A stretch of DNA of 64,000 nt from Acidimicrobiales bacterium (GTDB taxonomy: Bacteria > Actinomycetota > Acidimicrobiia > Acidimicrobiales > Aldehydirespiratoraceae). The notes beneath the pieces are model-generated. The model had not been told where the DNA came from, did not search any database, and saw nothing but the letters and a program-made list of their open reading frames with translations. Of this stretch, positions 2,618 to 50,472 are shown piece by piece. A program made the position numbers and the translations under genes. The first letter of the stretch is position 1, and the number at the start of each line of letters is the position of its first letter. Location: assembly GCA_029263215.1 (NCBI GenBank), contig JAJCXY010000108.1, positions 2,135-66,134 of the forward strand, written 5' to 3'.

Positions 2618-3610
2618 TCAGGTTGGCGCCGCGCCGGCTCCGGCCCGCCACGGATCAGGCAGTTCGACGATCGCCTGCTCGTCCCGTTCGAGGAGCGAAA
2701 GCGCGGCGAGAACGACGCTGCGCTGGCGTTCGCTGTCGCCGGGGGCGCCGAGCGGACGGCCCATCGGATGCTTGGTGATCGCGGCCCTCGCGACACCCAT
2801 GAGTTCGGGGATGTGGCCGAAGCTGCGTACGTAGACCCCGACGGTGGGGATCCCGATCGACTCGATTGCTCGCTGGACGTGTCCGACCGACACGTGGCAG
2901 ACGGGTCAAACGGGCACCAGCAGGACTGCGTCGACTCCATCATCGCGGAGTTGCTCGGCCCACTCGGGCGCGTTCTTCTTACGCAGCCTCACCTGGGAGG
3001 TGGCGCCGACGAACGAGTAGGCGGTTGGCGCGAGTCCACCGATGACGCCGTCATTTGCCAGCGCCGTCATGTGTTCGAGAGGTAAGGCGACCTGGTGATC
3101 GGCCGCCACCGAAGCGATCGGGTAGCCGCCGTGTCGCACTCTCAGCTGAGAGGGCGGCGTATCTACCGGCACAGCGGATATCGAAGGTGCCGCGCTGAGG
3201 AACTCGCCGATTCGCGCCTCCGCCTCGGCCTGGGTCATGTCTTCGACGTCGAACGGTCGTGGGTCGTCGCCCTCGACAAAATGTCCGCTCGACGTGAGCA
3301 GGGCAACGGTGCACTCCGAGAGCGGCTTGCCGAGGCTGGCGAGCGGCGTGTCGTCGTGGCGGTGGGGGAAGTCGGCGGGGTCTCCGAGATGACCCACATA
3401 CGACTCGAGTTGCCAGCGGTAGGCGGCATCGATCACCCGATCGGCGTTGCCGTCATCGGTGGTCGCGGCAATGGCGGCCAGTAGTTCCTCGAGAAACGCC
3501 CCGAACTCGTCGTCGCTGAGGCCCTTGATGAACTTGAAGTTGAGGTTGCTTCGTGAGCCGTAGGCGAACGACTGGCGAAGCTGCTCGATGGTTTCGGGTT
3601 GCTTGTTCAC
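2618..3610 (-). CDS. glycine/sarcosine/betaine reductase selenoprotein B (GrdB) family protein, predicted selenoprotein (Sec = TGA at complement 2906..2908)
   Basis: The C-terminal part of ORF 2906..4237 (...GVDAVLLVPV) and ORF 2618..2893 are in the same frame and separated only by TGA-CCC-GTC-TGC-CAC. The read-through product is ...LLVPV-U-PVCHVSVGHVQRAIESIGIPTVGVYVRS...HPMGRPLGAPGDSERQRSVVLAALSLLE, which is GrdB-family-like. The likely start is GTG at 3610 (VNKQPETIEQL), 23 nt after the upstream stop. Confidence 0.75.
2877..2895 (-). promoter_or_regulatory. candidate bacterial SECIS hairpin downstream of UGA 2908..2906
   Basis: Minus-strand RNA is UGA CCCGUCUGCC ACGUGUC GGUCG GACACGU. This gives a perfect 7-bp stem starting 10 nt after the UGA, with an apical GGUC beginning 17 nt after the UGA. 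Confidence 0.55.
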
Positions 3611-46993: not shown

Positions 46994-47423
46994 GCACCGC
47001 CTCCCAACCCGGGTCGTAAGCATCGCGAAACGACTGACCCTCGACCTGTCCGAACTCCTCCCAGCCGCGGTGATCGAGGTCGATCTGCGTTCCTGCATCG
47101 ACCGCGTGGAAGCGCACATCGAGGACAGAACCAGCTTCCGGGTCGAGGCTTGGGTGCCATGCGAGCACGAATCGATGAGGAGGGTCCCACGTCATCACGT
47201 CGGCCCATGAATGCTCCGAACCGTCCTCGGTCAGCTCGACTACCCGGCCCCCGACTCTCGGCTCGAAACGCACACCGGTGGCCTTGTTCTGGGCGATCGA
47301 ATGGGTTGCGATCGGCCACCAGGAGCCCATTTCGGACGTGAACAGTTCGAAGGCGGCTGCCTGCTCGAGTGCCACAGTGCGGGTCTTGAGAATGGGCGTG
47401 ATTGCGGTGGGAGAAAGTCTCAC
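46953..47423 (-). CDS. SRPBCC (Aha1-domain) family protein
   Basis: 156-aa ORF. AAFELFTSEMGSWWP...GGRVVELTEDGSEHSWADVMTWDPPHRFVLAWH. It has a 4-nt overlap with the upstream ArsR gene. Confidence 0.8.
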   Translation of the reverse strand: MRLSPTAITPILKTRTVALEQAAAFELFTSEMGSWWPIATHSIAQNKATGVRFEPRVGGRVVELTEDGSEHSWADVMTWDPPHRFVLAWHPSLDPEAGSVLDVRFHAVDAGTQIDLDHRGWEEFGQVEGQSFRDAYDPGWEAVLSALEENPRWRAS

Positions 47424-47728
47424 TGCGGTTGCTCCTTTGATGCTCGTCGTGCGAATGAATCGAGGACGTCATCCCACAGGGTGTCGACCCACGCCCGTAG
47501 TAGGGCCACGCCCTCGGGATCGGCGGAGTAGATACGCCGAGTGCCCATGGGTGTTGCGGTGACCAGCCCGGCCGAGCTCAGAACCTGTAGGTGTTGTGAC
47601 ACCGCGGGCTGGGAGATCGGCATCTGATCGGTGAGTTCGCGCACCGACGATGATGAGTGCCGTATCAGTTCGTAGATGGTTCGCCTGGTCGGATCGGCCA
47701 AGGCGGTGAGTTGGAGTCCGACGTCCAT
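47420..47728 (-). CDS. ArsR/SmtB family transcriptional regulator
   Basis: LADPTRRTIYELIRHSSSSVRELTDQMPISQPAVSQHLQVLSSAGLV is the ArsR wHTH. Confidence 0.9.
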   Translation of the reverse strand: MDVGLQLTALADPTRRTIYELIRHSSSSVRELTDQMPISQPAVSQHLQVLSSAGLVTATPMGTRRIYSADPEGVALLRAWVDTLWDDVLDSFARRASKEQPQ

Positions 47729-47736
47729 TCGCCTAT

Positions 47737-47763
47737 TGATAGGTCATGGCTTATGATAAGTCA
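47737..47763. promoter_or_regulatory. candidate ArsR operator (two TGAnnnnTCA palindromes)
   Basis: TGATAGGTCA (47737..47746) and TGATAAGTCA (47754..47763) lie 17 bp apart in an AT-rich 55-bp region immediately upstream of the ArsR start codon (47728). Confidence 0.4.
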
Positions 47764-47783
47764 ACTCTAATGTTTGAGGGACC

Positions 47784-48344
47784 TCAGAGGAGATGCTGCA
47801 CCCGATCGAGCAGGTGGCGGCCGATGATCGCGAACCAGAGCAGGTAGGGGACAAGCACCACCAGCAGCGCGTGGACCGGACTAAGACGAAGGGTATGACT
47901 GGTGGCCGCGCTGAGCACGGCCGGAAACCAGAACGCAAACACGAACACCGCAGAGACGAATCCCGGCCCGAGAATCTCGAGCAGACCGGCGGCCACCAGA
48001 ATCACCAGGCCGAGGGCGAGCACGGGCGTGTGGGCCAACCCGACGGCCGCAACGGCCATCTGTAGAGATGGCACCGAGACGCCGCCGTCTCGACCGTCCC
48101 CAATGGTGCGGGCCGCACCTTCCACCAACCATATGGCGCCGGCCAGACCGAGCCAGCCCCATACGCCCACCAGCATCAGGCGGAGAAACGACCTCGGCGT
48201 GTCGACGATGAGGCCCCCGAAACGGTTGAGGGCCATCAGGAACGATGTCGTCGTCACCAGGGTGAGCGCCGACCAGATCGAGCCGGGCCCGACGCGTGCC
48301 CACTTGACCGCGTCGAGGCCGAGAATGCGAGGCACCGCGTTCAC
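47784..48344 (-). CDS. Yip1-like multi-pass membrane protein (hypothetical)
   Basis: The GTG start overlaps the stop of the DUF3179 gene (GTGA at 48344..48341). Five hydrophobic spans are present. The upstream part of ORF 47784..48563 is out of context. Confidence 0.6.
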   Translation of the reverse strand: MNAVPRILGLDAVKWARVGPGSIWSALTLVTTTSFLMALNRFGGLIVDTPRSFLRLMLVGVWGWLGLAGAIWLVEGAARTIGDGRDGGVSVPSLQMAVAAVGLAHTPVLALGLVILVAAGLLEILGPGFVSAVFVFAFWFPAVLSAATSHTLRLSPVHALLVVLVPYLLWFAIIGRHLLDRVQHLL

Positions 48345-49357
48345 GGTTCCCACACGGTGCCATCGGGCCAGAAGGTGTCGTAGTCGCCGGGAAACGAAGT
48401 CAGAGCGGGCAGCAGGTCGAGAATCTGGCCCTCCAACTGTCCCTCGAGGGCGAAGCCCCTCGCCGGGTCGAAGGTGGTGCCGGTCACCGTTTCTCTCAGC
48501 ACATCTCCGTCGATCTCGAGATCCACGATGATGTCGCCGAGGCGTCGGGAGAACACCGCCCAACTGTCGGGTTCAGTGGGATCGCTCACCACCGCGATCT
48601 CCAGGCCCGCCACCACGTCGTTGACCACACCCACCTGTCGTAGATCGGGTATGGGATAGGCCCGCACCTCATCGGTGAAGTCGACCACGATCACGAAATC
48701 GCCGAGATCGAAGCCGGAACTGCCGGCCGGGGCGGCCAGGGCGAGGGTGTCGGGGTGCTTGTCACGCCAGGCGCCCCACGTGGTGAACTCAGACGGGAGC
48801 AACTCGACCTGTTGGCCCTTGCGGGGCCCAGCGATCGCCTCACCGAGAGGCTGGCTCCAGATGCTGCCGGAGCTGTGATCCCACCACGTCATAGCGTTGC
48901 CCCACAGGGCACCGTGCACGCCGAATATCAGGGTTTCCCCGTTCACCTCTCGACGATGGACCATCGCCGTTGCGCACAACGGTCACCAAGAAACGAGTAT
49001 CGGGATCTTGTCGAGCTCGTCGACCACCAGCTCTCGGCCGTTGAGAAAACTCACCGGGTAGGCCTTCGATTCGCCACCGAGGGTGACCCCGATGACATGG
49101 GTGTCGTCGGTCCAAGGCGTGACTTCAGCCCTAGCGAAGATCGGGTCGTACACGGGCTTGATCGCGTCGCGGGGCAGGAGTTGGCGAAAGCCGTCGGGCA
49201 ACTTCTCTCCGGCCGCTACCGGGTTGTAGGCGTCGTCGGGGCCCACCCGAACGCCGGCGCTGGTTCGCACCGAGTCTGTGTCTTCGCTGAACGCCCACGC
49301 CGAAAGAGCGACAAGGATCAGGACGGCCGAAATCAGCCAGCGACGAGTGGGTTCCAC
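48341..49357 (-). CDS. DUF3179 domain protein, predicted exported selenoprotein (Sec = TGA at complement 48983..48985)
   Basis: ORFs 48983..49357 and 48341..48979 are in one frame: ...DKIPILVSW-TGA-PLCATAMVHRREVNGETLIFGVHGALWGN...SIWSQPLGEAIAGP...TWGAWRDKHPDTLAL. As I recall them, DUF3179 proteins carry CPLC at exactly this position. The N-terminus MEPTRRWLISAVLILVALSAWAF is a signal/anchor sequence. Confidence 0.75.
48953..48982 (-). promoter_or_regulatory. candidate bacterial SECIS structure downstream of UGA 48985..48983
   Basis: RNA is UGA CCGUUG-UGCG-CAACGG CGAUG-GUC-CAUCG. This gives two consecutive hairpins. The second has an apical GGUC beginning 20 nt after the UGA. Confidence 0.5.
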
Positions 49358-49425: not shown

Positions 49426-50472
49426 CTAGGCGGTAGGGAAAAGAGGCGCGTGCGGAACCGTCACCGACGTCACGATGCCCCCGCGGTCGCCGACTGTGAT
49501 GTCGCCGTAGCGCTGTTGGAAGCTCGGGGGGAGTCGGCGGTCGCCGTCGATCGCCAACCAGAGTCGGAGCAGGTGCCTCGGTGCGCCGGGCTTGTTGGCG
49601 AAGCCGGTGCGATCGTGCAGCAGCGAGTGGTTGTGAACGAACAACATGTCGCCGGTGCCCATCTCCAGAGAAAGGTTGAGGTGCCCGTCGTTGGCGATCT
49701 CGTCGAAGAGGTCGAGCGCCGCGATCATGTCGGTTGTGAGGCGGGGGGCGTTGGCGAGGCGCTGGGCCGAGTCGATGTATTGGCGTTGAATCATCGCGGT
49801 GAGAGCGTCGTCGTACCAGCTGAGCACCGGAATCGTGAAGAACGGGTCTGCGCCGATGGGGACCTCGCCACGACGGTCGGTGGCGACCGGTTCGAACAGC
49901 AGAGCCGCGAGGGCAGGCTCGCGATCGAGCATCTCGTTGTAGATGGTGCCTGCACTCACAAGGAGGGAGAGACCCCCTGACTCGGCGGTTTCGAGGCAGA
50001 GCAGTCCGACCACATCGGCGGAGTCGGTGTGGAAGGTCTGGCGTTCGTTCGTCTGATAGATCCGTACATCGGGATCATCGACGTCGAGTCCGACATCGCG
50101 AACGTGGCCGAGAAGGTGGCCCGCAGCATTCTGGGAGCGCGCGGAACCGAGATGGGCGCCGATCCCCAGGAAGACGGCTGCGGTCTGGCGAACCGGGACT
50201 TCGGCCACCGGCCATCCCAGCACGACCTCGAAACCTCGACCCCGAATGAGGCTGTGCTTCAGTTGCTCGAGACGCCCGCCCAACCGGGGAAGGGGGAACT
50301 CCGGAGCAGATATCGCGGGAAGGTCGGCATCTCCCTCCGCGAACCAGGCGGATGCCGCAATCAGTTCATCGATCTCGGCATCGCTGAGACGCCAGGTCCA
50401 GCTCTCGGGGTCGGTGGCCAGCTCTTCTCCCACCCACACCTGGGGACCGGCTTGGCGAGGAGCCACCGTCAC
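49426..50472 (-). CDS. TauD/TfdA family Fe(II)/2-oxoglutarate dioxygenase
   Basis: 348-aa ORF. QTFHTDSAD (HxD) and FVHNHSLLHDRTGF are present. Confidence 0.85.
   Translation of the reverse strand: MTVAPRQAGPQVWVGEELATDPESWTWRLSDAEIDELIAASAWFAEGDADLPAISAPEFPLPRLGGRLEQLKHSLIRGRGFEVVLGWPVAEVPVRQTAAVFLGIGAHLGSARSQNAAGHLLGHVRDVGLDVDDPDVRIYQTNERQTFHTDSADVVGLLCLETAESGGLSLLVSAGTIYNEMLDREPALAALLFEPVATDRRGEVPIGADPFFTIPVLSWYDDALTAMIQRQYIDSAQRLANAPRLTTDMIAALDLFDEIANDGHLNLSLEMGTGDMLFVHNHSLLHDRTGFANKPGAPRHLLRLWLAIDGDRRLPPSFQQRYGDITVGDRGGIVTSVTVPHAPLFPTA

Follow-up and report, generated by a model that had tools for sequence, protein, structure and literature searches.

Selenoproteins of the DUF3179 family were reportedly first found in an Olavius algarvensis symbiont metagenome. 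The family is listed among the UxxC/T selenoprotein families in the tables of two papers (PMC9312934 and PMC13188914). In the SECIS element of E. coli fdhF, U17, G23, and U24 are critical, and an upper hairpin of 17 nt is located 11 nt away from the UGA (PMC8659212; nucleotides, nt, are numbered throughout with the U of UGA as 1). The apical loop of this element is G22-G23-U24-C25, and of 5426 complete E. coli genomes, 5419 contain the 46 nt following the fdhF UGA, at 100% identity and within the gene annotated as fdhF. The consensus bacterial SECIS (bSECISearch; Zhang and Gladyshev, as summarised in PMC13188914) has a loop of 3–9 nt on a stem of 4–16 bp, a G at the first or second position of the loop with G or U as the next base, a UGA-to-loop distance of 16–37 nt, and an energy of −7.5 kcal/mol or lower; the bulged U is not part of this general consensus (PMC13188914).

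In the window, that is, the whole stretch of 64,000 nucleotides analyzed here, a TGA on the minus strand (48985-48983) joins two entries of the ORF list that share the same frame, 48983..49357 and 48341..48979 (Table 1). The read-through product consists of 338 residues, and its translation matches Pfam PF11376 (DUF3179) with an E value of 1e-50, the match spanning the TGA. Sec occupies the first position of the CxxC motif of this product, the local motif being U-P-L-C, and the minus-strand RNA at the site reads GUU UCU UGG UGA CCG UUG UGC GCA ACG GCG AUG GUC CAU CGU CGA GAG. The N-terminal hydrophobic segment of the product suggests a signal anchor. We searched 401 genomes from the same class in six frames and scanned species-representative genomes, which yielded 103 distinct orthologous segments; the Sec codon is TGA in 98 of them and TGC or TGT in five. 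The 98 TGA-carrying orthologues are full-length and lie at distinct loci, and the 213 codons after the TGA stay intact. The distant paralogues all have C-P-L-C, with Cys at the Sec position.

Table 1. Positions of the features in the window, and the selenoprotein genes of the genome with the loops of their SECIS elements
Feature	Position	Strand	SECIS loop	Remarks
DUF3179 selenoprotein gene	48341..49357	minus	GUC, closed by G-C	single frame with internal UGA; GTG start at 49357 provisional
UGA very likely read as selenocysteine, W-U-P-L-C	48983..48985	minus		same aligned codon in 98 orthologues
SECIS hairpin, 8-bp stem CGGCGAUG / CAUCGUCG (very likely)	48951..48969	minus	GUC	conserved pairs, frozen synonymous sites
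UGA-adjacent hairpin CCGUUG-UGCG-CAACGG (nt 4–19)	48967..48982	minus		not part of conserved element
GrdB/PrdB-like selenoprotein gene	2621..3610	minus	GGUCG	Pfam GRDB E 7e-13; stop TGA at 2618-2620
GrdB-like SECIS hairpin ACGUGUC-GGUCG-GACACGU	2877..2895	minus	GGUCG	after UGA 2906-2908
Second DUF3179 selenoprotein gene	contig C78, 16834; locus L156:1501-2448	plus	GUUU	T-Y-U-T-V-C-S-S-G; Pfam E 2e-60
SelD gene			GGUCG	
Thioredoxin-like lipoprotein gene			GGUC	F-W-A-P-W-U-P-T-C
Glutathione peroxidase gene			GGUC	
AhpC/TSA-like gene			GGU	W-U-G-C
SelL-related redoxin gene			CGUGC	
CMD/AhpD-like gene, first copy			CGUGC	C-F-Y-U; Pfam 19.5 bits, under 23-bit cut-off
CMD/AhpD-like gene, second copy			GUG	C-F-Y-U
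UGSC protein gene			GUG	

As for the surroundings of the gene, the ORF translations suggest a TauD/TfdA-like dioxygenase upstream (49426-50472) and, downstream on the same strand (47420-48347), a multi-pass membrane protein and an ArsR-like HTH protein. The closest orthologue (locus L054, CAXMSE010000025.1; 90% protein identity) comes from a MAG labelled 'uncultured Gammaproteobacteria', and other matches carry the labels Kiloniellales, Saprospiraceae, Gemmatimonadales, and Acidobacteria. Because all near relatives are Acidimicrobiia, these labels probably reflect mis-binning or mislabelling rather than transfer.

The sequence-only reading of the window had described two hairpins downstream of the DUF3179 UGA, CCGUUG-UGCG-CAACGG and CGAUG-GUC-CAUCG, and both are present in the minus-strand RNA. 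Its further observations, that a GGUC begins 20 nt after this UGA and 17 nt after the other in-frame UGA of the window and that both TGAs stand in a U-P-x-C context, also agree with the sequence; the other UGA (2908-2906) lies in a GrdB/PrdB-like gene, and the motifs are W-U-P-L-C and V-U-P-V-C, respectively. The second stem had been given as 5–6 bp; it does exist but is longer, comprising 8 bp (CGGCGAUG/CAUCGUCG). The complete hairpin corresponds to nt 17–35 (19 nt), its stem beginning 13 nt and its loop 21 nt after the UGA, and is formed by the pairs C17-G35, G18-C34, G19-C/U33, C20-G32, G21-C31, A22-U30, U23-A29, and G24-C28 with the loop G25-U26-Y27. The loop GUC lies at 48959-48961 and the GGUC at 48962-48959. 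The energy of the hairpin is −9.0 kcal/mol here and −11.7 kcal/mol in the consensus orthologue.

Each of the eight pairs is kept in 96–98 of the 98 Sec-form orthologues, and the loop is GUC in 83, GUU in 13, and GUG in two of them. Codons +5 to +10 read ACG GCG AUG GUY CAU CGC in the Sec forms, essentially without synonymous variation. ACG is used at the hairpin site in 98 of 98 sequences, compared with 33% of the codons for the same amino acid elsewhere in the same genes; the corresponding values are 97 of 97 versus 30% for GCG and 98 of 98 versus 27% for CAT. At codon +10, CGC was found 92 times and CGT five times. The mean pairwise identity of third positions is 0.94 within codons +5 to +10 and 0.49 outside. 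The synonymous sites flanking the hairpin are near saturation in the 98 Sec forms: Leu +2 is encoded by five codons, Ala/Gly +4 uses all four third bases, and Arg +11 uses four codons, with Cys +3 being TGC or TGT and Pro +1 being CCG or CCA. We regard this synonymous-site conservation as decisive in indicating that the hairpin is more than a product of chance. In addition, Sec-form DUF3179 genes of Acidimicrobiia can be recognised by the 20-nt motif ACGGCGAUGGUYCAUCGCCG, which hardly varies.

The only recurrent change in the stem among the 98 Sec forms is from G-C to G-U, and no compensatory double changes were found in the hairpin of this clade. Nearly all pairs include a non-synonymous position, which keeps the stem invariant, and the pairing is therefore inferred from self-complementarity together with the freezing of synonymous sites. 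An outward extension of the 8-bp stem is not conserved among the orthologues, and a search for a lower stem pairing nt 4–6 with downstream sequence found no conserved or covarying partner. Rfam gave no match in the window at the gathering thresholds, and a permissive local search gave a chance match only (E = 7).

The five Cys-form orthologues tie the hairpin to the presence of Sec. Pairs are lost in four of them. The Cys form at locus L031 encodes the same peptide, T-A-M-V-H-R, by ACC GCA AUG GUC CAC CGC, which breaks three pairs; the changes are exactly at the three synonymous sites required by the stem. In the Cys forms L033, L039, and L041, the pairs are lost and the peptide has drifted (TAMAHS, TAVTYR, and TGLVHS, respectively). 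The full hairpin is retained in only one of the five, L051. At this locus (G238:C19:80646-83805), two DUF3179 orthologues stand in tandem, one with TGA and the other with TGC at the same codon, and the hairpin kept by the Cys copy suggests that a duplication was followed by a recent change from Sec to Cys. The constraint on the RNA thus accompanies the UGA. These patterns indicate that selection acts on the hairpin over and above its coding function and that this selection is tied to the Sec state. The constraint also seems to keep the encoded peptide from changing, so that the in-frame SECIS and the peptide would lock each other: T-A-M-V-H-R is invariant in the Sec forms and relaxed in the Cys forms. 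The proposal that the hairpin is a SECIS element was thus strengthened by its conservation in the 98 Sec-form orthologues and its degradation in four of the five Cys forms, and we consider it very likely that the hairpin at 48951-48969 is the SECIS of a DUF3179 selenoprotein mRNA.

Folding energy was a poor guide at these sites. Compared with dinucleotide shuffles, the energy of the 66-nt segment at the DUF3179 site gave z = −0.84 and that at the GrdB-like site z = −1.42, neither being significant; in a genome of 65% GC, this comparison cannot settle the question of the hairpin either way. A covariance model of the two hairpins in the window, whose stems are unrelated in sequence, would carry little information, and we therefore scanned all TGA triplets of the genome with a descriptor, a perfect stem presenting GGUY 14–24 nt after the TGA. 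Such a hairpin with at least 6 bp was found at 461 of 108,657 TGA triplets (0.42%) and with at least 8 bp at 82 (0.075%). For ORFs that end in TGA and have 300 codons or more, the numbers were 12 and 4 of 2577, respectively, in line with the earlier impression that GGUC hairpins rarely follow ordinary TGA stops. Of the long-ORF TGA ends in this genome, 4.5% satisfy the published SECIS model, which is less strict. The consensus model is therefore weak by itself, and the assignment of the hairpin to the SECIS elements rests on the conservation data.

The absence of SelB or tRNA-Sec had been named in the sequence-only reading as an argument that would count against the SECIS proposal; SelB, tRNA-Sec, SelA, and SelD are all encoded in the genome. 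The tRNA-Sec has the anticodon TCA and scores 64 bits (Rfam RF01852). The selB gene (273 bits) encodes a SelB of 572 residues with a C-terminal SelB-wing_3 winged helix and is adjoined by selA on the same contig, and selD contains a UGA of its own at G-A-G-U-G-C-K. Motif-guided inspection and Pfam gave a list of at least 11 selenoprotein genes (Table 1). Outside the window, at least nine further UGA-split selenoprotein genes were seen, on contigs C18, C30, C127, C41, C115, C57, C47, and C2 and, in the case of the second DUF3179 gene, on C78. A genome-wide list of candidates, filtered by GC3 and by a permissive criterion for the loop, comprised 192 matches, mostly antisense or shadow frames, and was too noisy to be used. 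The candidates on C56, C84, C125, C2 (C2:16561), C93, C81, C98, C25, and C96 were rejected, having non-coding-looking translations or real stops.

All 11 SECIS elements consist of a perfect stem of 6–9 bp and a loop of 3–5 nt containing G-U. The G-U lies at nt 22–38 across the genome (median about 26), and in the ten elements other than that of the present gene, the loop starts 17–33 nt after the UGA. GGUC, which had been noted at both in-frame TGAs of the window, occurs in five of the 11, but the feature common to all is the G-U of the loop, in agreement with the published consensus. The 11 genes thus give a lineage-specific picture of SelB recognition, namely a perfect stem of 6–9 bp and a loop of 3–5 nt with G-U, often GGUC. 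At the UGA, gene callers truncate the DUF3179 gene, as they do with ten or more other genes of this genome, and protein databases then lack the active sites of these redox proteins.

The GrdB-like gene in the window offers a comparison. Each of 17 relatives in the class has a single TGA, located at V-U-P-V-C. The codons CAC GUG UCG GUC GGR CAC are kept in 14 of 15 close orthologues, with the neighbouring codons varying; the exceptions, one UAC and one CAU, concern the first codon, which is outside the stem. In a distant orthologue (L153, G195:C272), the corresponding place, at an equal distance, is taken by another hairpin of 6 bp, CAGACC-GUG-GGUCUG. The changes here are compensatory, this SECIS being conserved in structure without being conserved in sequence. 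In L153 and another distant relative (L154, G123:C1), the peptide following U-P-V-C is a different one, H-Q-T-V-G-L.

The second DUF3179 selenoprotein gene of the genome lies approximately 10 kb from the selA-selB pair. A class-wide search revealed no close orthologue of this paralogue, and a scan of all species genomes did find orthologues. They form a clade common to MAGs of Acidimicrobiia and Chloroflexota (Anaerolineae and Dehalococcoidia) with the motif T-Y-U-x-x-C-S-S-G, in which 34 Sec forms have a hairpin at nt 19–25/30–36. The pair 24-31 is C-G in 24 of them and U-A in nine, the U-A state coupling a synonymous Val change to an Asp-to-Asn replacement. The pair 22-33 is G-C in 14, G-U in 10, and A-U in nine. 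As judged from these base pairs, the hairpin of the second clade, which occupies the same position as that of the first, exhibits true compensatory changes.

The mechanism of Sec insertion would follow the E. coli/Moorella model. By this analogy, the C-terminal winged helix of SelB, together with GTP and Sec-tRNA(Sec), would bind the apical loop of the hairpin. When a UGA occupies the A site, the next 12 nt or so lie inside the mRNA channel of the ribosome, as known from its footprint. With the UGA at 48985-48983 in the A site, the hairpin from nt 17 would sit at the entrance of the mRNA channel, and because approximately 12 nt lie in the channel, it would be the first structure able to persist there. 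The tethered SelB would then supply the UGA with Sec-tRNA(Sec), competing with RF2, and after Sec insertion, translation would run on for 213 more codons.

The 8-bp hairpin is not the minimum-energy fold of the isolated sequence of this genome. Its fold has an energy of −10.1 kcal/mol, compared with −11.2 kcal/mol for a two-hairpin fold and −12.3 kcal/mol for a UGA-proximal 9-bp helix (nt 2–10 with 19–27), which RNAfold prefers. One may therefore suppose that the functional signal is a two-hairpin arrangement, or a switch with the UGA-proximal helix (GACCR + UGGUC), instead of the single 8-bp hairpin, since both of these folds are slightly more stable in this sequence. Five pairs of the proximal helix (nt 2–6 with 23–27) are possible in 96–98 of the 98 orthologues. 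The Pro codon after the UGA (48980-48982; loci L017-L133) also fits such a switch, being CCG in 80 and CCA in 18 of the 98, so that R6 can always pair with U23, whereas CCC and CCT do not occur; elsewhere in the same DUF3179 genes, CCY accounts for 43% of the Pro codons. The remaining parts of these folds are, however, poorly kept. In the UGA-adjacent hairpin, which had been taken as part of the element and turned out to be specific to this genome, the pair 7-16 is kept in only 18 of the 98 orthologues (8-15 in 63 and 9-14 in 66), and the 9-bp helix is broken in its middle in most orthologues (7-22 kept in 18 and 9-20 in 62). The complementarity between GACC and GGUC is mostly forced by the UGA, the Pro codon, and the GGUC loop, and in the GrdB-like gene, whose UGA-CC and GGUC are the same, the third base of the Pro codon is free to vary. 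Furthermore, the helices in question are inside the ribosome channel when the UGA is decoded. The decoding ribosome would melt helices of nt 2–19, and the competing folds therefore need not matter. The UGA-adjacent hairpin shares nt 17–19 with the 5' arm of the conserved stem, and because it cannot coexist with that stem, we count one 8-bp hairpin and not two. Taken together, a two-hairpin or switch-type signal seems quite unlikely. The related idea that GACCR (nt 2–6) and UGGUC (nt 23–27) form a conserved alternative conformer, which would hide the UGA together with the loop bound by SelB and be opened only by the ribosome, is in our view improbable; if true, such a conformer would act as a kinetic switch that ties the loading of SelB to the arrival of the ribosome, a feature absent from the standard SECIS model.

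The hairpin might also be regarded as a by-product of the peptide T-A-M-V-H-R-R with no RNA function, any read-through of the UGA being independent of it. Three of the eight pairs are indeed fixed by the amino-acid sequence alone, and no compensatory changes are seen in this clade. The other five pairs, however, need synonymous choices that are invariant in the 98 sequences and account for 27–33% of usage elsewhere, and the Cys form whose peptide is identical encodes it by different codons and has lost the stem. The Cys forms relax the peptide as well (see the three drifted peptides above), and a mere peptide by-product is accordingly highly improbable. We give still less credence, in fact almost none, to the possibility that the TGA is a real stop, with two genes or a pseudogene at the locus and the hairpin acting as a terminator or stabiliser. 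It is true that gene callers split the locus and that the two ORFs stand separately in the ORF list, but the two halves belong to a single Pfam domain match that runs across the TGA, and the TGA is found at the same codon in 98 species-level genomes with the 213 downstream codons intact. Moreover, no U-tract follows the hairpin, and relatives have Cys at the TGA site. The preferred reading thus remains that of a SECIS hairpin directing Sec insertion at the UGA.

The hairpin is very probably a textbook-type bacterial SECIS element in a family already catalogued as selenoproteins, that is, a new instance of a known element, and it implies no new mechanism. It agrees with the bacterial SECIS consensus in every respect (3-nt loop, 8 bp, G-U, 21 nt, and −9.0 kcal/mol). 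Like the SECIS of E. coli fdhF, it follows the UGA immediately on the 3' side, within the coding region, and has a short upper stem-loop. The apical GGUC lies at nt 22–25 in fdhF and at nt 24–27 in the DUF3179 SECIS, so that the critical G23 and U24 of the former correspond to G25 and U26 of the latter, and the hairpin starts 11 and 13 nt after the UGA, respectively. Unlike the fdhF element, the DUF3179 SECIS has neither the bulged U (U17 of fdhF) nor a conserved lower stem. Its stem is a perfect one of 8 bp in which the first G of GGUC can pair with C28, leaving a GUC triloop, and the host SelB is that of an Acidimicrobiia member with 572 residues. The gene shares with the known DUF3179 selenoproteins the Pfam family (PF11376) and the position of Sec at the first Cys of CxxC. 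The reviews that list the family do not describe its SECIS (PMC9312934 and PMC13188914). Compared with these listings, the present analysis adds an Acidimicrobiia clade with W-U-P-L-C and a nearly invariant 20-nt SECIS, as well as a second clade whose SECIS differs from it and covaries.
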